From an uncultured Candidatus Saccharibacteria bacterium (GTDB lineage: Bacteria > Patescibacteriota > Saccharimonadia > Saccharimonadales > Saccharimonadaceae), in NCBI GenBank assembly GCA_963523995.1, contig CAURDR010000001.1, positions 238,021 to 302,020 on the forward strand: a DNA stretch of 64,000 nucleotides. Direction: 5' to 3'. This document shows positions 18,754-56,642 of the stretch, piece after piece. Both the position numbers and the translations under genes were made by a program. The notes beneath the pieces were generated by a model. The model was not told where the DNA came from. It was given only the letters and a program-made list of their open reading frames with translations, and ran no database searches. Within the stretch, counting starts at the first letter, position 1, and each line of letters starts with the position of its first letter.

Positions 18754-19251
18754 ATGGCAATATTTCATTATATATCCGTCCTTGTTCCGACGACTTTAGC
18801 TGTGGCGACGCCTTACGTTTTGAGAAGAAACGGCTTTGATAATGAGAAAAAATATCGCTGGCTACTTTACGCAGCGTGTTTGTTGTTCTTCATATCTTGG
18901 TATTTGCCATCGCCGTTAATTGACGGACAGGACACTAGTTTTACGACGCACTTTGTGGGCGGTGGGCTATTTACGGGGCTATTCTGGGCGTATTTGGTTT
19001 CGTCAATTAAATGGCGAGCGCATTGGCTGGTGATGGCGTTTTCAGTCTTCGCTTTAGTTTCGGCGTTGGGTTGTATTAACGAATTGGCGGAATTATTTAT
19101 GGTCAAGGCAGATTTGGCGAGCATAAAATTGGACGACACGAACTGGGATATTTTGGCGAATACATTAGGCGCGGCAACAATTTGGATTGGCTGGATTGTC
19201 GTGGATTTTACGATGAAAAAGGGAAGATTGTCGGGTGATTCTGGGAATTGA
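18754..19251 (+). CDS. Hypothetical membrane protein
   Basis: Several TM segments; THF...NELAE...DTNWDILANTLG pattern (VanZ/DUF2238-like). Confidence 0.7.
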   Translation: MAIFHYISVLVPTTLAVATPYVLRRNGFDNEKKYRWLLYAACLLFFISWYLPSPLIDGQDTSFTTHFVGGGLFTGLFWAYLVSSIKWRAHWLVMAFSVFALVSALGCINELAELFMVKADLASIKLDDTNWDILANTLGAATIWIGWIVVDFTMKKGRLSGDSGN

Positions 19252-20224
19252 TGAAGTCGGGCGCGGCGCGTGGGCGGGACCGTTGGTGATTGGTGCGGTG
19301 GTTTTGGGTGGCGCTGAAATTGAAGGGCTTGATGATAGTAAAAAATTGACCAAAAAACAACGTGAATTGCTCGATGAGGAAATTCGTGAGCAAGCATCGG
19401 CTTGGGCGTTGGGCTGGGTTTCTGCTGAGGAGCTGGATGAAATAGGGATGAGCGAGGCGCTTAAGCTGGCAACGCGGCGCGCAGTTAAAGAAATTCAAGC
19501 GAAATGTCGGAAAAATGGCTCGACGTTTGATGAGATTATTATCGATGGGACGGTCAATTTTTTGGCGGGTACACCGTTAGAAAAGTATGTAACAATTATA
19601 GCGAAAGCCGATGGTCTGATTCCGAGTGTTTCGGCGGCGTCGATTATCGCTAAGGTGGCTCGTGATAAATTTATGGCAGAACAGGATAATGTTTATCCGG
19701 GATATGATTTTTCTTCACACGTTGGCTATGGCGTAGCGAAGCACCGAGCGACTATTGATAATCTGGGTGTGACTCCGCTACATCGGCTAAGTTTTGCGCC
19801 GTTAGCTAAATATGCTAATACTGGGGCGAATTCGCAAAATACGTCTGACGATAGAAAATCTAAAAACCAGCAAAAAGACACGACGCATCAAATTGGCGAT
19901 AAAGGTGAGCAGGCGGCGGCGGATTGGTTGGTGGCTGATGGTCATGAGATCATAGAACGGAATTGGCGAACGCGATATTGCGAAATTGATATTGTTAGTA
20001 AAAAAGATAATGTTTTATATTTTACAGAGGTCAAATATCGTAAAAATGACAATTTCGGCGATGGCTTGGCGGCAATTACAAATAAAAAACAGCAGCAAAT
20101 GCGTTTTTCTGCAGAGATGTTCACTGCCAAAAATACGCAGTATGAAAGCTGTGATATGCAAATGCTGGCAATTTCTGTTGATGGAAATCCGCCCGTAGTC
20201 GAGGAATGCGTAGCACTAGATTAG
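19235..20224 (+). CDS. rnhB: Ribonuclease HII fused to a C-terminal YraN (UPF0102) nuclease domain
   Basis: GIDEVGRG, DDSKKL, SAASIIAKVARD; then GDKGEQAA...ERNWR...EIDIV...FTEVKYR. Confidence 0.92.
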   Translation: MILGIDEVGRGAWAGPLVIGAVVLGGAEIEGLDDSKKLTKKQRELLDEEIREQASAWALGWVSAEELDEIGMSEALKLATRRAVKEIQAKCRKNGSTFDEIIIDGTVNFLAGTPLEKYVTIIAKADGLIPSVSAASIIAKVARDKFMAEQDNVYPGYDFSSHVGYGVAKHRATIDNLGVTPLHRLSFAPLAKYANTGANSQNTSDDRKSKNQQKDTTHQIGDKGEQAAADWLVADGHEIIERNWRTRYCEIDIVSKKDNVLYFTEVKYRKNDNFGDGLAAITNKKQQQMRFSAEMFTAKNTQYESCDMQMLAISVDGNPPVVEECVALD

Positions 20225-20280
20225 GGCATAAAAAATAGCCCCAAATGAGGACTCCTTAACGTTAAGTGTATTAATTATAG

Positions 20281-20335
20281 GGAATGTACGACAAGGCAGT
20301 CGTAGTGAAGAGCAGTCTGCTTCATCGCACATTCC
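20281..20335 (-). repeat. 3' trailer hairpin of cassette C
   Basis: ggaatgtacga/tcgcacattcc stem; contains gacaaggcagtc (20290-20301), complementary to leader 20908-20919. Confidence 0.8.
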
Positions 20336-20344
20336 ATGCGCGGA

Positions 20345-20785
20345 TCAATCCGCAAGCTCAGCAAGCTTTCTGGCGATAGCCAGGTTGCTCTTCTGATACA
20401 AGGGGATCTCCGTTGCGATGAGCTCTCTCAGGTCATGCAAAAAACCACTGTACTGGCTCCAGTAGCATCCTGGCCAATCGGATACGGGCGACTCCCCTTC
20501 CGCTATGGATGAGACTGCGCCTAGTATTTTGTCAATCTTTCCTTGTACTGCCTCCAATGACCCTTCCGGGCCATTATGGCAGATAGAGTCCAGTAGATCT
20601 CGAAGGGCTTCCGAATCCTCCTGGATGTGCGTCTTCTGGAGGTTAGGGTAATCACCCATGATATCGCTGATTCCATTATTATAGGCATTCAGCGTGGATA
20701 CCTTACCCTCCAGGATGCTTGCGTACACGGAGATTGCCTCCGTGTTTTTCGCGCACATGTGACTGAGAATCTCTTTCGTGAGCAT
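20345..20785 (-). CDS. Cassette C cargo protein (146 aa, unknown function)
   Basis: ORF lies between the conserved leader and trailer; purine-rich SD GGAAGGAAAGAG. Confidence 0.8.
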   Translation of the reverse strand: MLTKEILSHMCAKNTEAISVYASILEGKVSTLNAYNNGISDIMGDYPNLQKTHIQEDSEALRDLLDSICHNGPEGSLEAVQGKIDKILGAVSSIAEGESPVSDWPGCYWSQYSGFLHDLRELIATEIPLYQKSNLAIARKLAELAD

Positions 20786-20997
20786 TTTGCTCTTTCCTTC
20801 CTCTCATCCCCACTCGGCTGCGGTGAAGCACTTTTCTTCAGTGCAGGATGAGATCCTATCTCTTTTTGATATTTTTTAAAAAAAGAAATAGAAACTCATC
20901 CTGCAATGACTGCCTTGTCAAAGTGCGCTTTCGGACAATCAACTTGTCAACAAAAGCCACTTTCATTTATATCACTAATAGAATAAAATGTCAATAG
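20786..20997 (-). promoter_or_regulatory. Cassette C promoter and structured 5' leader (diverged copy)
   Basis: TTGACA(20994-89)-17 nt-TATAAA(20971-66); shares ttgtccgaaagcgNactttgaca, tatttcttttt and gatctcat blocks with 53067-53296 and 56360-56593. Confidence 0.85.
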
Positions 20998-21024
20998 ATT
21001 TTGTCAAAAATGTGGCATAATATA

Positions 21025-23538
21025 TCACAGTGTTGTTTGCAAAGCAGAAAGCACGTCCGCCTTGTCTCGCTCAATCAACTCGACGCGTGCTGATATTTCG
21101 GTAATTCCCAGCTTAATCGTTCTGGCTAGGGCTGGAATATTTTCCATCGGTTCAGAGAATTGCTGAAAATCGTTAAGTTCGTCGGTTGTCAGTAGGGCCG
21201 TAGCTGCATAGCGAATAAAATCGTCGTAACTTTTATCCTCACCAAACGTATCTTCGACCCATACCCAGTTCTCCTTTAACCAATTCCACGCAATCTGGCG
21301 GCTTTCTCTGGTCCGAATCAAATACACAAACCAACGGCTGGCGTCTTGCGGACGGATAACATTAGAATCTTTAATGTTGGTAAGAATTTTTTCTGCGGTT
21401 TCAGGGTTTTTGGTAGAAGTTAGTCCAATTGCAATATCATTCTGCAGGTCATTTGACGGCGTGTTTTTATATGTGGCAAAGAGATTATCAATCATCTCTG
21501 GCGTCTCGAAATGCCTCACGTTTGCGCTGATAATTAAAGCTCGAATTTCTGTCGGTAAGTTTTCCAATTTATTGTTGTCAAATCGCGTTTTCGCCTCGTT
21601 CAAAACTTCTTTATCTTCGCTATACATCATCAAACTCAAAGCCGTGGTGCGCCGTTCTCGGTCGTCATCAGATTCTCCATCTTTTTCATCCCAGCCAAGC
21701 TCTTCAAATGTGGCGCGTGTAAATTCTCCAGAAATTCGCTTTAATGAATCTCTGGCGGCATCATTGTCATCGACGAATTTTCGTAGTTCTGTCAAAGCGC
21801 CAGCCGCCATCCCGAAGACTTTTTCGTTGGTCTCAGTTTTTAGCGACAATGCCAATGGAAGTAGCGACGCCGAGTTTTTAAATCCAGCGCGGGCGAGTAT
21901 TGCCGCGTCTTGTAAGATACAAATCTTATCCAAGGTCGGCAATTCTGTAATGTTTTTCAATAAATATTCGCGAGTTGATTCGTCATATTTGGTGACGAAG
22001 TGGGCGCTTAAGCCGCAGTTTAATTGCAATGGCTTTTCAATAGAAACGGTGGTTTCTTTTTGATCCAAGATTTTTACGTCAAGTGGCTGGTTTGCGAATA
22101 ATGGAATCGGCCATAACGCGTCGGATGGTTGGTGTTCGCCGATGAAGAATCGCTCCTGACTTAAAGTCGCCGCATCGTGACTGCTTGAGACTGATACGAC
22201 AGGAAGGCCAGGTTGGGAAATCCAAGCGTTCATTAAATCGACGATTGGCTGACCGCTCGCTGATTCTAATTCTTGCCATAAATCATTTCCGACGGTGTTT
22301 TTATACGCGAATTTTTCAAAATACGATTTAAGTCCAGCGCGAAATGCTTCTTCACCAATAAGTTTTCTGACCATAACAAGCAGCCGCCCGCCCTTGGCGT
22401 AAACGATTGCTGGGTCGAACAAAGTACTGATTTCGTCTGGATGATTAACGTCGGCTTGAACGGATTGAACGCCATCCAAGCTGTCGCGCCTGAGTGTGGC
22501 CGTTACTTCATTCGTGGCAAAATCTTCCCACATATGCCAATTTGGCTGGAGCGCGTCAATTGCTACATATTCCATCATATTGGCGAAGCTTTCGTTGAGC
22601 CACAAGTCGTTCCACCACTGCATGGTAACCAAATTGCCGAACCATTGATGGCTGAGCTCGTGCGCGATAACCGTAGCAATGAAGCGCCTGGATGATTCCG
22701 GGGTCAATTCTGGGTCCGCAAGCAAACAACTTTCTCGGTAAGTGATTAAACCCCAGTTTTCCATTGCGCCAGAGGAAAAATCGGGAAGAGCGACGTGGTC
22801 GGATTTTGGCAATGGATATTTGACCCCGAAATATTCGTCATAAAAATCAATTGAGCGAGTGGCGATGTCTAACGCAAAATCTAATGTATTTTCATTCTGA
22901 GCTGGTGTTGCCCAGATGTTGACCTCGACGCCAGACTTGGTGCGAGCGGATTTTTTGTGCAACTCACCGATGACGAAAGCCAGAAGGTAACTGCTCATTC
23001 GTGGTGTTTTCTCAAATGTCGTCGTGAGAGAATTGCCATTTTCTTCTTCGTATTTTACGGGCATATTTCCCAAAACCGTTATTCCTGTTCGGGTGACCAG
23101 TGTCAAATCATATTCGGCTTTGGCGGCCGGCTCATCAACGCAAGGGAAAACTTCGCGGGCGTGATGCGATTCAAATTGAGTTGCGAAAAGTTGTTTTTTA
23201 ACGCCGTCGTGAGTGAAGTAGCAAGGATATAAACCGTGCATTGCGTCGGTGACGGTTCCAGAAAAATTGATGTGAATTGTGTGGTTTCCGTTTTTAAGGT
23301 TCGGCTGGGATAGTCTCAATTCGTCAAACTCACCAAATGAAACGTCGGCGGGCTGATTGTCGATTGTGGCTGATTGAATTGTTAAGCCTTTGGAATGTAG
23401 CGAAATTGATTCGCTGGTGGAATCGCCAGAAATGATAACTGTGCCGGAAAATTCTTTTTCCTCGGCGCGCGTTAAATCGAGAGTTAGGTTGTAATGATTT
23501 GGTGTGAATGTGTCGAGTAAGCGTGGAACTTTAGTCAT
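21025..23538 (-). CDS. pepN: M1 family aminopeptidase N
   Basis: GAMEN, HELSH...LNE. Confidence 0.95.
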   Translation of the reverse strand: MTKVPRLLDTFTPNHYNLTLDLTRAEEKEFSGTVIISGDSTSESISLHSKGLTIQSATIDNQPADVSFGEFDELRLSQPNLKNGNHTIHINFSGTVTDAMHGLYPCYFTHDGVKKQLFATQFESHHAREVFPCVDEPAAKAEYDLTLVTRTGITVLGNMPVKYEEENGNSLTTTFEKTPRMSSYLLAFVIGELHKKSARTKSGVEVNIWATPAQNENTLDFALDIATRSIDFYDEYFGVKYPLPKSDHVALPDFSSGAMENWGLITYRESCLLADPELTPESSRRFIATVIAHELSHQWFGNLVTMQWWNDLWLNESFANMMEYVAIDALQPNWHMWEDFATNEVTATLRRDSLDGVQSVQADVNHPDEISTLFDPAIVYAKGGRLLVMVRKLIGEEAFRAGLKSYFEKFAYKNTVGNDLWQELESASGQPIVDLMNAWISQPGLPVVSVSSSHDAATLSQERFFIGEHQPSDALWPIPLFANQPLDVKILDQKETTVSIEKPLQLNCGLSAHFVTKYDESTREYLLKNITELPTLDKICILQDAAILARAGFKNSASLLPLALSLKTETNEKVFGMAAGALTELRKFVDDNDAARDSLKRISGEFTRATFEELGWDEKDGESDDDRERRTTALSLMMYSEDKEVLNEAKTRFDNNKLENLPTEIRALIISANVRHFETPEMIDNLFATYKNTPSNDLQNDIAIGLTSTKNPETAEKILTNIKDSNVIRPQDASRWFVYLIRTRESRQIAWNWLKENWVWVEDTFGEDKSYDDFIRYAATALLTTDELNDFQQFSEPMENIPALARTIKLGITEISARVELIERDKADVLSALQTTL

Positions 23539-42961: not shown

Positions 42962-42996
42962 ATACGAAAAAACCACCCGCTCGGATGGCTAAATAT
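42962..42996. repeat. Direct repeat, left copy (island boundary)
   Basis: atacgaaaaaaccacccgctcggatggctaaatat, near-identical to 47362-47395. Confidence 0.85.
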
Positions 42997-47361: not shown

Positions 47362-47395
47362 ATACGAAAAACCACCCGTTCGGATGGCTAAATAT
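47362..47395. repeat. Direct repeat, right copy (includes the tRNA downstream hairpin)
   Basis: atacgaaaaaccacccgttcggatggctaaatat, 5 nt from the tRNA CCA. Confidence 0.85.
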
Positions 47396-47400
47396 CTGAT

Positions 47401-47476
47401 TGGTGCGGGTAAGGAGACTCTAACTCCTGGCCTCTTCCATGGCAAGGAAGCGCTCTAACAACTGAGCTATACCCGC
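47401..47476 (-). tRNA. tRNA-Gly(GCC)
   Basis: Cloverleaf; cttcc-ttGCCat-ggaag; encoded CCA; T-loop TTAGAGT. Confidence 0.93.
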
Positions 47477-52899: not shown

Positions 52900-52976
52900 T
52901 GGTGGGAAATACAGGGCTCGAACCTGTGACCTCACGAATGTGAATCGTGCGCTCTAGCCAACTGAGCTAATTTCCC
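52900..52976 (-). tRNA. tRNA-Val(CAC)
   Basis: cacga-ttCACat-tcgtg; TTCGAGC; CCA. Confidence 0.93.
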
Positions 52977-53066
52977 GTAATTACATCTGTCGTTTTATTT
53001 AACAAATTCGTGATGTGAGATAATTATAGTTCAGGTTTCAAGTCCTGACAAGTTACGCCGAGCATA

Positions 53067-53296
53067 TTCTATTGACTTTTTTACGCAAGTGTGGTATAAA
53101 TGAAAGTAGCTTTCGCTGATGAGTTGAGTAAATCCTTGTCCGAAAGTGAACTTTGACAGGCAATCGAACACAAGATGAGGTTTTATTTCTTTTTAACCCG
53201 CCATAAGAGAACTAAGATCTCATCTTGTGTTGTTAAGAGAACAATGCTTCGCTGCACACCCGCAGAGATGAGAACACCAGAAGAAAGGTGAAAACC
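53067..53296 (+). promoter_or_regulatory. Cassette A promoter and structured 5' leader
   Basis: TTGACT(53072-77)-17 nt-TATAAA(53095-100); stems 53103-15/53141-54 and 53167-79/53219-31; near-identical to the reverse complement of 56466-56593. Confidence 0.9.
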
Positions 53297-53779
53297 ATGC
53301 CTACCTATGCCGTAGAGGTGATTAGTCATCTCATCAATGACGCATATTCGAATTATCTCGAATTTAGTCGTCTCCTTCGTCAATGGGGAACTGCATCCCT
53401 GTCCCTAAAAGTTCCATCAGAGGAACAGCAGAGGTTTCGACAGATGAATCGCGATGCGATGGAGGCAATGAAGTCGATGAAGGACTACGCTGAGTCTCTG
53501 TGCCGCGAAAATTACGGCTCTTCGCTGACGCAAATCGGGGAAGAAGTTTACTCTCAGGCTCAAGTATGCATTGATGCTATTTCAGCTCGGTCTGAATGAT
53601 GCATTGAGGAACTGCCATACAGAGAGCATGCGTATAAAACTTCTGTGGACAGTCATACGAACGCACTCCTTGAGCTACTCCGAAGGGTCAAGCGTGCAGG
53701 TGACATCTTGAAGAAGTCTGATGAATTCGAGTCCGTTCGGGCTTACCAACTTTATCAGTACTACAGGTACATCTCGTAG
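53297..53779 (+). pseudogene. Cassette A cargo ORF interrupted by an in-frame TGA at 53597-99 (100 aa, or 160 aa if read through)
   Basis: The frame stays open for 59 more codons to TAG 53777-79, just before the trailer. Confidence 0.6.
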
Positions 53780-53789
53780 ACGCCCCGTC

Positions 53790-53882
53790 TCTACATGACA
53801 GGTGATTGTTCTTTTACGATTGCCTGTCATGTAGACTCTGAACTTATAACATTAAAAATCACCCTAACTACGGGTGATTTTC
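53790..53882 (+). repeat. Cassette A 3' trailer hairpin plus bidirectional terminator
   Basis: tctacatgacagg/cctgtcatgtaga; cgattgcctgtca (53817-29) complements leader 53154-66; aaaatcaccc/gggtgatttt. Confidence 0.85.
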
Positions 53883-53905
53883 TTATGGTGAAAAATTTCA
53901 GTTCT

Positions 53906-53990
53906 TGGTGCGGATGAAAGGACTTGAACCTTCACGCCGTGAGGCACATGCTCCTAAGGCATGCGTGTCTACCAATTCCACCACATCCGC
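53906..53990 (-). tRNA. tRNA-Leu(TAG)
   Basis: catgc-ctTAGga-gcatg; long variable arm; CCA. Confidence 0.95.
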
Positions 53991-54074
53991 ATAACCCGAT
54001 TATATCAAAACAAATTCTACTTATCAACTGCCCGCGCTTATGTTAAAATTGAAGTAACATACTAAGGAGGGTTG

Positions 54075-55685
54075 ATGAATAAAGTTGCGAAATATTTGAA
54101 TGAACATCTTAGTGGCGAAGTCGTGTCGCAGGATTTTGCATTGAGTCAAGTTGAAGTTGACAATGGACTTTTGGCGCGCCGACCAGAAATGATTGTTCGT
54201 GCGGCTAATATGAACGACATCAGGAAAGTGATGCGATTTTGTTCTCAATTGGCAGAGAAAGGTCATGTTTTACCTGTATTTGTTCGTGGTTGTGGCAATG
54301 ATGAAACTGGCGCAGCGACGAATAAAGGTATTGCAATTGACGAAAAAACGTATATGAATCGTGTGATTGGTATTGATCCTCGCCAGCAACTGATTCATGC
54401 TCAAGCGGGGATTTCTCTTTCGGCAATCAACGCAACTTTGTCTACTCATAAAGGCTTGGGTCTGCCGCGAACTTCATATGTGGCGGAAGAAGGCACGATT
54501 GGTGGCGCAATTAACACAGCTCCGTCCGGAGTGTTATCTGGCGCGCATGGTCGTTTTGCTGACACGATTCAGCAGCTTGAAATTGTCCTAAGTAATGGTG
54601 ACGTGATTCAGACTGGGCGCATATCTCGACGCGAATTAAGTAAGAAAAAAGGATTATCGACGTTTGAGGGCGAGATTTATCGAGAGATTGACAATTTAAT
54701 CTCAGATAGCACCGAGCTGATTTCGCAAATGGATCCAGCTTTGCCAGATACGGTTGGCTACAGCGGGATTTCTCGAGTGAAGCAAAAAGACGGGTCGTTT
54801 GACCTGACACCGCTGTTTATTGGTAGTCAGGGAAGTCTGGGCGTGATTTGCGAAGTTATTATGAAGGCGCAATTTATTCGTCCAGAATATTCAGTCGTTG
54901 CCGCATCATATAAAAAGTTGCCAGACGCGCAATCAGCCGTGGAATTAGCGATGAAAAATAAGGCGTCGGCGGTGGAAATAATCGACGGGCGATTCTTCCG
55001 TCAGGCTGCGGTCGTCGGTAAAGTGGTTGAGTGGGCGCCGAAAGAATGCTTTAAGGGTGTGGTGGTCTTGGCTATCTTTGACGACTTTTCTGATAGAGCG
55101 CGTAATAAAGCCGCGAAGAAATTGACTCGAAAATTGGAATCATCAGAAGCGATTGACATAAAAACTCTGCACTTGGAAGAGCAGGATTTGTTCAGCTTAC
55201 ACTCTGTTTTGGCTTTGGCGGAAACTCCAAGCGAGCCGCATATGATTACGCCACGCGTTTTCTCAGGGATTTTAATGGCGCCAGAAAAGATTGATAGTTT
55301 CCTTAGTGAGTTGAAGTCGTTGGAATCTAAGTACGGCGTGGATTTGCCAGTTTTTGTTGATTTTTCAAGCGATTATATTTCTCTACATCCGACGTTTGAT
55401 AGTAAAAAGGTGAGTGAACGCCAGAAGATTCTTCAGTTGTTGGCGGAAATTTCTCAGATTGTTGATAAGTATGAAGGTTCTTTTGCGGGCTTTGGTGGTG
55501 ACGGAAGATTGAAAGCTAACTTTATTTATAAGAACCTGCCAGATGATGAAAAACAATTATACGCGAAGGTGAAAAAAATCTTTGATCCAGCTGGAATTTT
55601 TAATCCAGGAATTAAAGCGGAAGCTCAGCCAAAGGAGTTGGCGGCGGAGTTAAACGCGTGGTGTAAGCTTCGTAATCAAGCTTGA
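54075..55685 (+). CDS. FAD-binding oxidoreductase (GlcD/D-lactate dehydrogenase-like)
   Basis: GTIGGAI, FIGSQGSLGVI, KKIFDPAGIFNPG. Confidence 0.85.
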   Translation: MNKVAKYLNEHLSGEVVSQDFALSQVEVDNGLLARRPEMIVRAANMNDIRKVMRFCSQLAEKGHVLPVFVRGCGNDETGAATNKGIAIDEKTYMNRVIGIDPRQQLIHAQAGISLSAINATLSTHKGLGLPRTSYVAEEGTIGGAINTAPSGVLSGAHGRFADTIQQLEIVLSNGDVIQTGRISRRELSKKKGLSTFEGEIYREIDNLISDSTELISQMDPALPDTVGYSGISRVKQKDGSFDLTPLFIGSQGSLGVICEVIMKAQFIRPEYSVVAASYKKLPDAQSAVELAMKNKASAVEIIDGRFFRQAAVVGKVVEWAPKECFKGVVVLAIFDDFSDRARNKAAKKLTRKLESSEAIDIKTLHLEEQDLFSLHSVLALAETPSEPHMITPRVFSGILMAPEKIDSFLSELKSLESKYGVDLPVFVDFSSDYISLHPTFDSKKVSERQKILQLLAEISQIVDKYEGSFAGFGGDGRLKANFIYKNLPDDEKQLYAKVKKIFDPAGIFNPGIKAEAQPKELAAELNAWCKLRNQA

Positions 55686-55725
55686 TGTTGGGCGAGAATT
55701 GGGCTATAATTGACGCGTAGCCCAT

Positions 55726-55812
55726 GCGGATGTGGCGGAATTGGTAGACGCGCTAGCTTCAGGTGCTAGTGTACGCAAGTACGTGAAGGTTCAAGTCCTT
55801 TCATCCGCACCA
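55726..55812 (+). tRNA. tRNA-Leu(CAG)
   Basis: ctagc-ttCAGgt-gctag; long variable arm; CCA. Confidence 0.95.
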
Positions 55813-55837
55813 ATATTTGACAATTTTTCACCATAAG

Positions 55838-55927
55838 AAAATCACCCATTCTCAGGGTGATTTTTAATAACATAAGTTCAGAGTCTACATGACAGGCAAT
55901 CGTAAGAACAACCGCCTGCCATGTAGA
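55838..55927 (-). repeat. Cassette B 3' trailer hairpin plus bidirectional terminator
   Basis: Inverted homolog of 53790-53882; tgacaggcaatcg (55890-902) complements leader 56494-506. Confidence 0.85.
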
Positions 55928-55939
55928 AATTGGAAATTG

Positions 55940-56359
55940 CTAGAGTTCCATGACGAAACTCTGGGAGAGTCCCATGACGTGGAACAGAGACCTACGGATC
56001 ATGATCTGGAGATCGGTCACCAAATCCGCCTCCTCTTCATCCTCCATGGGGATATTCCCCAAGGTTTTCTCGACGGTTTTGAATTCAAGTGCGGCCGAAA
56101 TGGTCACGTCGAGGACCTTTTCTGCAAACGCTTCCTTGTTAATTTCCTCCTCGTCATACTCCTCACAAATGTGTGTGAGACCCACGAGATTTTCAATATG
56201 AGTCTCGGCTGAACGGACGGAAGCTTCGAAAAGGATCCCCTTGATGGGGTCTTGAAAATGGAATTCATCATCAAGGATGGCGCGCCTGAGACTATCCCAG
56301 TATAGCCTGGTTACCATAGCAAGCATGGTAAGGTTTTCCATGTAGGTGCTGAATTTCAT
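55940..56359 (-). CDS. Cassette B cargo protein (139 aa, acidic, unknown function)
   Basis: ATG 56359 after GGAAGGTG SD; lies between leader and trailer. Confidence 0.8.
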   Translation of the reverse strand: MKFSTYMENLTMLAMVTRLYWDSLRRAILDDEFHFQDPIKGILFEASVRSAETHIENLVGLTHICEEYDEEEINKEAFAEKVLDVTISAALEFKTVEKTLGNIPMEDEEEADLVTDLQIMIRRSLFHVMGLSQSFVMEL

Positions 56360-56593
56360 GGTGGTATTCACCTTCCTGGTGTTCTCTCATCTGCTCATCT
56401 GCGGGAGTGCAGTGTATTGTTCTTTCAATACAAGATGAGATCTTATCTCTCTTATGATGGTTCTAAAAAAGAAATAAAACCTCACCTTGTATTCGATTGC
56501 CTGTCAAAGTACGCTTTCGGACAAGGATTTACTCAACTCATCAACGAAAGCTACTCTCATTTATACCACACTTGCGTAAAAAAGTCAATAGAA
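56360..56593 (-). promoter_or_regulatory. Cassette B promoter and structured 5' leader
   Basis: TTGACT(56588-83)-17 nt-TATAAA(56565-60); homolog of the cassette A leader. Confidence 0.9.
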
Positions 56594-56642
56594 GGCTCTC
56601 GATTTTTGTTATTTATTCAAGAACTTTGATAAAATAACAGAG

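Follow-up and report, generated by a model that had tools for sequence, protein, structure and literature searches.

The intergenic region between an rnhB-yraN fusion gene and a pepN-like gene of a Candidatus Saccharibacteria genome raises the question, to which kind of element the hairpins found there belong and by which route it reached this site. The window, i.e., the whole analyzed stretch of 64,000 nucleotides, corresponds to 238021-302020 of contig C1 and is part of an assembly of 690 kb with a completeness of 92% (GCA_963523995.1). In a preliminary description the minus strand of positions 20230-21000 had been interpreted as the diverged third copy (C) of a cassette occurring twice more in the window (A and B). 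The quoted stem sequences were all recovered at their positions, in C as well as in A (531xx-532xx, plus strand) and B (564xx, minus strand); in C the arms of stem 2 are located at 20895-20905 and 20842-20852, and at the foot of stem 1 a G-C pair of C indeed takes the place of an A-U pair of B. The flanking genes agree as well, rnhB and yraN being a single fused ORF of 329 aa, and the nearest tRNA gene within the window begins at 47401. Both similarity and structure exceed chance: a profile of A, B and C retrieved a fourth copy (D) which had not been used as seed (E 3.5e-44), and the predicted transcript (20233-20965) folds with a z-score of -8.3 against 20 dinucleotide shuffles. An Rfam scan of the window at the gathering score yielded tRNAs only and no rRNA match; miRNA-type matches on stem 2 were sub-threshold and were dismissed as generic hairpin resemblance. 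Elsewhere in the window a terminator-like repeat of 29 nt (42968-42996 and 47367-47395, 97% identity), of which one copy adjoins the 3' end of a tRNA-Gly gene, may mark the boundaries of an island.

The stems are part of a larger unit, and positions 20230-21000 represent one cassette, in which, as in each copy, promoter, stem 1, a motif of 13 nt, stem 2, ORF, trailer and 3' module follow each other in this order (Table 1). Three elements had been overlooked at first, namely the boxA-like motif, the long-range helix between leader and trailer and the hammerhead ribozyme which ends sister cassettes. The promoter consensus scan picked another TTGACA, at 21007, in place of the -35 hexamer listed; a downstream TTGACA was rejected as a second -35 element, as by eye no -10 element lies at the proper spacing. 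Other cassette types lack stem 2 or have different hairpins in its place. One contig from RNA runs (library type uncertain; 5 pieces from four runs) spans 20281-20841 and gives no indication of the RNA ends.

Table 1. Elements of cassette C, its flanking genes and the further copies in the same genome (window positions unless a contig is named).
Feature	Position	Strand	Basis or remark
-35 hexamer TTGACA, sigma70-type promoter (predicted)	20989..20994	-	sequence; common to copies at other sites
Extended -10 (TG-n-TATAAA), 17 nt from -35	20966..20974	-	sequence; conserved in A/B/C
Transcription start (predicted)	near 20960	-	promoter consensus
Stem 1, boxB-like hairpin immediately 5' of boxA-like motif	20927..20957	-	pairing and compensatory changes
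boxA-like motif CGCACTTTGACAA	20915..20927	-	reciprocal matrix test against rRNA leaders
Predicted NusB-S10 site, motif positions 1-8	20920-20927	-	8-nt recognition (PMC3177189)
Long-range helix 1, leader strand GACAAGGCAGTC, from boxA position 9	20908..20919	-	complementary to 20290-20301; paired in full fold
Stem 2, hairpin of about 25 bp; putative RNase III substrate	20842..20905	-	pairing
Long-range helix 2, leader strand	20824..20840	-	predicted fold with 20306-20324; equivalent pairing in other types
Shine-Dalgarno-like stretch	20795..20803	-	sequence
Cargo ORF, 146 aa, predicted four-helix bundle	20345..20785	-	51% GC vs 43.5% of contig C1
Long-range helix 2, trailer strand	20306..20324	-	predicted fold
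Long-range helix 1, trailer strand GACTGCCTTGTC	20290..20301	-	complementarity to leader strand
Alternative local trailer hairpin, rival of leader for the same strand	20281..20335	-	predicted fold
Intrinsic-terminator-like hairpin and U run	20230..20253	-	consensus scan
rnhB-yraN fusion, host gene	19235..20224	+	left flank, outside cassette C
M1 aminopeptidase, pepN-like, host gene	21025..23538	-	right flank, outside cassette C
Copy A	53072..53890	+	boxA-like 53147-53159, cargo ORF 53297-53599, trailer strand 53817-53829
Copy B	55830..56588	-	boxA-like 56501-56513, cargo ORF 55940-56359
Copy D	contig C9		matched by A+B+C profile

Covariation had been claimed for every leader stem; across the family it is found in the core of stem 1 and in stem 2, but not in the outer extension of stem 1, so that the claim was too strong. 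The 13 core pairs are formed to 99.1% over 70 distinct leaders, with many G-U pairs, and contain 25 compensatory cells versus 8.2 in shuffles (reached in 0 of 500), a count whose significance is overstated since the leaders are kin. The outer extension of six pairs, whose 5' strand overlaps the predicted transcription start, is paired to 58.6%, which is the level of the shuffles (274/500), and the G-C/A-U pair cited earlier, which is part of it, is broken in 42 of the 70 leaders. Within stem 2 compensatory changes affect seven of 24 pairs over 27 leaders. An alternative hairpin of the 3' arm of stem 1 with the motif is paired to 97.1%, without covariation (500/500 shuffles).

A further covarying element joins the two ends of the transcript. 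The motif's 3' half, together with the next bases, is complementary to the trailer just past the stop codon (GACAAGGCAGTC/GACTGCCTTGTC in C), and different but matching sequences are present in A and B and in D. Within 1.4 kb, 77 of the 85 leaders examined formed a duplex of at most -15 kcal/mol, the mean being -20.8 versus -12.1 (sd 2.0) for shuffled linkers; four of the eight leaders with a weak duplex are cut by contig or locus ends. Comparison of 74 cassettes from 19 linker classes, which had been pre-filtered for the duplex and whose classes are related, gave a mean of -19.8 for cognate versus -11.9 for non-cognate pairs, and none of 100,000 permutations was as low; the cognate duplex was the best or within 1 kcal of the best in 13 of the 19 classes. 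Helix 1 comprises 12-17 bp and is branched, and the strand past stem 2 pairs with the trailer in a second helix. Stem 1 core, stem 2 and leader-trailer helix hence all covary. The trailer can also fold into a local hairpin, which results in two competing folds. Equilibrium folds of C have the motif mostly paired (unpaired 0.09 at full length, 0.3-0.4 at nascent lengths), and the predicted accessibility of Shine-Dalgarno and start is alike with and without the trailer (0.49 vs 0.45).

Judged by its sequence and position, the 13-nt motif is the counterpart of the boxA in rRNA leaders of the order. A matrix deduced from the cassettes only placed the anchored boxA first in 17 and among the top three in 23 of 27 16S leaders (at most 317 positions), one of which was wrongly anchored, with an anchor pattern that overlaps the cassette motif; with the matrix of the rRNA sites, in turn, the cassette motif came out on top in 83 of 84 cassettes. 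For this comparison 33 16S loci had been tried and six without start or anchor were left out. According to the accessible text of PMC3177189, NusB-NusE reads boxA positions 1-8, with roles for G2, C5, U6 and U8 (Aquifex/E. coli structure). G2, C5 and U7/U8 are kept in 82, 77 and 84 of the 84 cassette motifs, and the Watson-Crick helix of C begins at position 9, past the positions read by NusB-NusE. Position 9 is a G in all 84 cassette motifs and mostly an A in rRNA boxAs (25/27). The A at position 4 differs from the gamma-proteobacterial consensus GYTCTTTAANA (PMC5725501, as far as accessible) and is present in 19 of the order's 27 rRNA boxAs.

The layout corresponds as well: A 16S unit of the same genus consists of promoter, hairpin, TGAACTTTAACAA, a leader-trailer helix of about -34 kcal/mol and terminator, and in several of the order's 16S leaders boxA is preceded by a similar hairpin. 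The rRNA leaders scored weakly with a covariance model of stem 1 (E 0.28-0.64), so that the link to rRNA rests on motif and layout, not on homology of the hairpins. The 16S rRNA is a separate transcription unit with a terminator right past the trailer strand (L153:1290-3230, likewise L152 and L154), and the 23S match starts 2-4 kb beyond it in these three loci. Four of five 23S leaders have their best boxA-like site about 90 nt upstream, and no strong trailer duplex was found there, the ends being uncertain.

A search for NusB was positive in 39 of 41 genomes; the protein scores above the cut-off in the genome studied here, which carries a nusB-Nudix-rnc cluster on contig C1 (208.6-210.2 kb; L075:420-2073); from weak sequence matches, the clustered Nudix enzyme may be an RNA pyrophosphohydrolase. 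A search for Rho in five genomes found none, and a SuhB-like gene (Inositol_P) was detected in one of five, not in our genome at its 92% completeness. In the tethering model for rRNA, boxA-bound NusB keeps hold of the leader until the trailer emerges, and loss of boxA costs E. coli 2-3-fold only (PMC10250234, accessible part). As no Rho was found, control of folding or of the 3' end appears a likelier role than Rho antitermination. Since the cassette encloses an ORF and not an rRNA, it would work like an rRNA leader-trailer unit, yet is not one.

Sister cassettes end differently. Of 77 complete cassettes, 18 continue from the trailer strand directly into a type III hammerhead, which starts at the 3' foot of the local trailer hairpin; the C locus gave no match to the hammerhead family (RF00008), defined by three stems around a CUGANGA/GAAA core, and has the terminator in its place. 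The hammerhead pattern occurs in 97 of 131 genomes of the genus and never in the reversed control. Core and three stems of the type III hammerhead (RF00008) are conserved in the sister cassettes, and in a set of ten hammerheads (three of the genus, the other seven out of five genomes from other families) the core is kept and 12 of 15 pairs covary. In the predicted folds the local trailer hairpin sequesters one strand of ribozyme stem III, whose probability is 0.05 alone and 0.96 with the leader and is raised in all 26 constructs. For 12 native transcripts stem III is predicted at 0.82 versus 0.24 without the leader strand; three of the 12 are exceptions (L018 and L019 are on without leader, L077 is off with it). 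From these predictions, the type III hammerhead would fold mainly upon pairing of the leader. The genome studied here contains one type III hammerhead of its own (contig C3, L003:2427-2481, 35.1 bits, below the gathering score of 48.5), situated between der and a CobW-like GTPase gene directly past the terminator that ends a short-leader cassette, whose cargo is a glycine-zipper membrane ORF of 81 aa. As this hammerhead has no trailer, it looks like the remnant of a replaced cassette.

A profile search of the same genome detected the four copies A to D and a remnant of promoter plus hairpin. Copy A converges on tRNA-Leu(TAG) and copy B on tRNA-Leu(CAG); both are inverted around a FAD-oxidase gene (window 52900-56600), and each shares the terminator of its tRNA-Leu. 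At these two sites the cargo differs among strains, some of which contain tandem cassettes. The 100-aa ORF of A stops about 200 nt short of the trailer and is possibly a broken longer ORF. A second cassette type combines the same promoter with a short hairpin, a membrane ORF of 129 aa and a conserved terminator of another kind; it lies on contig C1 near 319700 (minus strand; L002:2150-2710), and terminators similar to its own fill the yraN-pepN site in several distant members of the genus.

The preliminary description had regarded the family as dispersed and not as a local duplication. This holds insofar as four copies occur in one genome and the C leader was found by BLAST in 30 of 36 genomes of the same genus (Nanosynbacter-related), 24 genomes from other families being without match. 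However, the copies occupy a few fixed intergenic sites at which the cargo is replaced, rather than being scattered insertions. At the yraN site 72 of 79 genomes were matched. Among the best 30 loci, our genome included, 27 contained the frame, two an unrelated gene and one was truncated; the 27 frames enclose six cargo families, 17 being hammerhead-ended and 10 terminator-ended. Comparison of 20 more distant members of the genus revealed the proposed empty site, a yraN-pepN gap of 17-90 bp, in five of them, a hammerhead cassette in two and other inserts in 13. Moreover, four cargo families each occur at two or three different sites, and promoter and upstream DNA are common to different sites.

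With a covariance model of stem 1 and motif, 18 of 151 genomes of the order (our genome included) and 13 of 146 of the family were matched. Inspection of 23 order-level loci identified hammerhead-ended ORF cassettes in five rows (four genomes), and in four loci a tRNA gene just downstream of the hairpin-boxA module; a downstream duplex of -15 or below was present at 11 of 13 sites (ten hand-picked loci, two rows duplicated). In other families the hairpin-boxA module was seen 5' of tRNA genes followed by GC-rich structured sequence (L130:1500-1730, L137, L138, L144), and some of these tRNAs are unusual, one being a tRNA-Asp with ATC anticodon and another of undetermined type. A phylum-wide search of 151 genomes gave two matches besides our genome, neither with cassette architecture.

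Inside the cassettes no recombinase or reverse transcriptase (RT) was found. Searches of viral contigs gave one and zero matches, and the one match is to a prophage-like contig (L106, IMG/VR), at whose edge a cassette lies, probably in host flank. The RT of our genome is of the AbiP2 defence type (L074:1042-2628, contig C1 near 37 kb), lies about 220 kb away and is apparently unrelated to the cassettes; a retron was rejected for the type and distance of this RT and the lack of one in the cassette. Saccharibacteria are naturally competent (PMC10633639, accessible part). From the shared promoter and upstream DNA, the lack of recombinase and RT, the few viral matches and natural competence we infer that the cargo is probably exchanged at the fixed sites by homologous DNA recombination.

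The cargos are mutually unrelated proteins of 76-300 aa. For cargo C 36 database relatives with 45-99% identity and no Pfam domain were found, and relatives occur at six loci of Candidatus Nanosynbacter, Minimicrobia or Saccharibacteria genomes. The protein is soluble-looking, and its predicted structure (pLDDT 83) is a bundle of four helices. It could be assigned to no family of Pfam, PHROG or PADLOC, Foldseek gave nothing at E 0.001 and the Atlas nothing usable; the best structural Z, 11.7, was obtained with generic bundles of this type, among them Avd and LemA. The other cargos had PHROG (phage family) matches in three of 30 and Pfam matches in none of 27 cases, and a defence-family search of the four cargos of our genome found nothing. 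A common property lies at the RNA level: compared with synonymous shuffles, the ORF of cargo C has a folding z of -3.2 and the cargo ORFs have a mean of -2.4, with 14 of 19 below -2 (two of the 19 being one family), versus -0.1 and one of 18 for native small ORFs. Selection for a compact RNA is the sole account we can offer for this over-folding.

We consider it moderately probable that C is a copy of an rRNA-style, likely NusB-assisted mRNA cassette, whose ends are clamped and whose cargo is swapped by DNA recombination. Going by its consensus, the promoter would fire near 20960, whereupon stem 1, whose covariation is observed, would fold and leave the motif exposed. NusB-S10 on boxA positions 1-8 together with NusA and NusG could then tether the leader to RNA polymerase while the ORF loops out. 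The emerging trailer would pair with the leader from position 9 and oust the local hairpin; here the covariation is observed and the timing conjectural. In C the 3' end would be formed by the terminator about 40 nt farther downstream, and in sister cassettes by the predicted leader-dependent cleavage of the type III hammerhead. Presumably this results in a compact message for an accessory protein, with protected ends and probably a long life, and recombination would take place through the flanks and through the promoter/leader and 3' module which the cassettes share.

In type I toxin mRNAs a fold-back of the ends silences translation, and the clamp or the Nus complex might accordingly keep a possibly harmful cargo silent until trimming of the 3' end. 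The two competing folds and the position of the paired strand, which adjoins the Shine-Dalgarno in short-leader types, are in keeping with such a silencer, as is the boxA in an mRNA leader which represses suhB and a ParE-like gene (PMC5725501, accessible part). The equal accessibility of Shine-Dalgarno and start in C speaks against it, and so do the distance of about 130 nt between boxA and start codon, the size and diversity of the cargos, of which the four of our genome lack any defence family match, and the fact that no conserved antisense unit was noticed. Type I systems combine an antisense RNA with a short hydrophobic toxin, and cargo C is a soluble-looking bundle of 146 aa. We regard silencing as unlikely. 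That boxA serves processive antitermination only, through hairpin-rich foreign cargo, with the end pairing as a mark for RNase III, is very improbable: the rrn complex interferes with intrinsic termination (PMC13753749, accessible part), the cargo is indeed rich in hairpins, rnc is present and hammerhead cassettes without terminator lie ahead of a convergent gene, but the transcripts are short (0.5-1.2 kb), no Rho was found in the five genomes and helix 1 is short and branched.

Two further explanations place the function outside the message. The conserved ends could mainly be handles for DNA recombination, with the rRNA-like signals as baggage from an rRNA or tRNA leader; promoter and upstream DNA common to the sites and the swapping of cargo at fixed sites speak for this, and PeSLs of T4-type phages shuffle ORFans in a like manner (PMC2839356, accessible part). 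The one-sided, G-U-rich and compensatory changes on the sense strand, the type-specific complementarity of leader and trailer, the intact hammerhead core covarying across families and the over-folded cargo point to selection on the RNA, which makes handles as the main function quite improbable. As for DNA copies of circular retrozyme- or viroid-like RNAs, in which stem 1 would be a decayed second hammerhead and the long helix its stem III, they could draw on the CTGATGAG...CGAAAG within stem 1 of copy A, the hammerhead ends of sister cassettes and the over-folded cargo RNA. Yet hammerhead position C3 is a C in two of 70 leaders, while G12 is lost in nine and A9 in 21, and the 3' half of the similarity is accounted for by the boxA match; given these varying core positions, the idea that stem 1 forms a hammerhead, whether active or bipartite, was rejected. 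Promoter DNA and the part past the cleavage site travel with the unit, which has at most one intact ribozyme and no two hammerhead-bearing terminal repeats, the single RT found in our genome is of the AbiP2 type, and viral contigs gave hardly a match. This origin is most improbable. The sparse contigs from RNA runs, uninformative in this respect, contained no joint of a circular RNA.

Among known systems the bacterial rrn leader comes closest to the end-clamped cassette, with a hairpin, a boxA and a strand pairing with a distant trailer (PMC10250234, PMC3177189, PMC13753749, in their accessible parts), and the 16S unit of the genus itself has the same order of parts through to the terminator. 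In contrast, the cassettes enclose a variable protein-coding ORF, their helix is short and branched by stem 2, a local trailer hairpin competes with it and some end in a ribozyme. On non-rRNA transcripts boxA is described for suhB, the ParE-like gene (PMC5725501) and CRISPR arrays (PMC13753749), where it represses translation or blocks Rho as far as these sources could be consulted; the cassettes have a leader-trailer helix, no Rho was found and their frame is multicopy. Hammerheads next to variable genes of prophages and bacteria (PMC3088659, accessible part) resemble the canonical type III hammerhead of the sister cassettes, which also lies beside non-constant small genes. The sisters differ in that they possess one ribozyme per promoter-bearing chromosomal unit; a terminator can take its place, and it is predicted to be dependent on the 5' leader. 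Copy C has none. The PeSL cassettes of T4-type phages share conserved promoter and hairpin modules flanking ORFans that are exchanged at hotspots (PMC2839356), and a conserved promoter module with cargo exchange at hotspots was found here too; unlike these, as far as that source is accessible, our cassettes are chromosomal and carry boxA and two different ends that pair as RNA.

In the literature covered, which left subscription papers mostly outside, no description of these cassettes, nor of boxA or hammerheads in Saccharibacteria, was found; the accessible part of a preprint (bioRxiv 10.64898/2026.10.21.760802) does not mention Patescibacteria, and its cluster database could hold this leader. 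The present contribution consists in the boxA test against rRNA leaders of the order, the series of swaps at a single site, the predicted leader-dependent fold of the ribozyme and the over-folded cargo. A bolder and rather unlikely extension would be that NusB brings leader to trailer, and that their pairing turns on the hammerhead or comes before termination, so that rRNA-grade messages become durable, end-clamped and uniformly folded parcels of a strain-specific toolkit, stored for host-free dispersal or passed to the host bacterium. If the end-clamped cassette is read correctly, signals of rRNA transcription and folding, i.e., boxA and leader-trailer helix, would serve as a general frame for protein-coding genes. 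With NusB kept and no Rho found, this bears on the roles of the Nus complex besides blocking Rho, and it gives bacterial hammerheads a testable task, to form the 3' end of an RNA in dependence on its own 5' end. For this oral epibiont genus, of which related strains are genetically tractable, the frame marks strain-variable orphan genes and would be a natural expression cassette.
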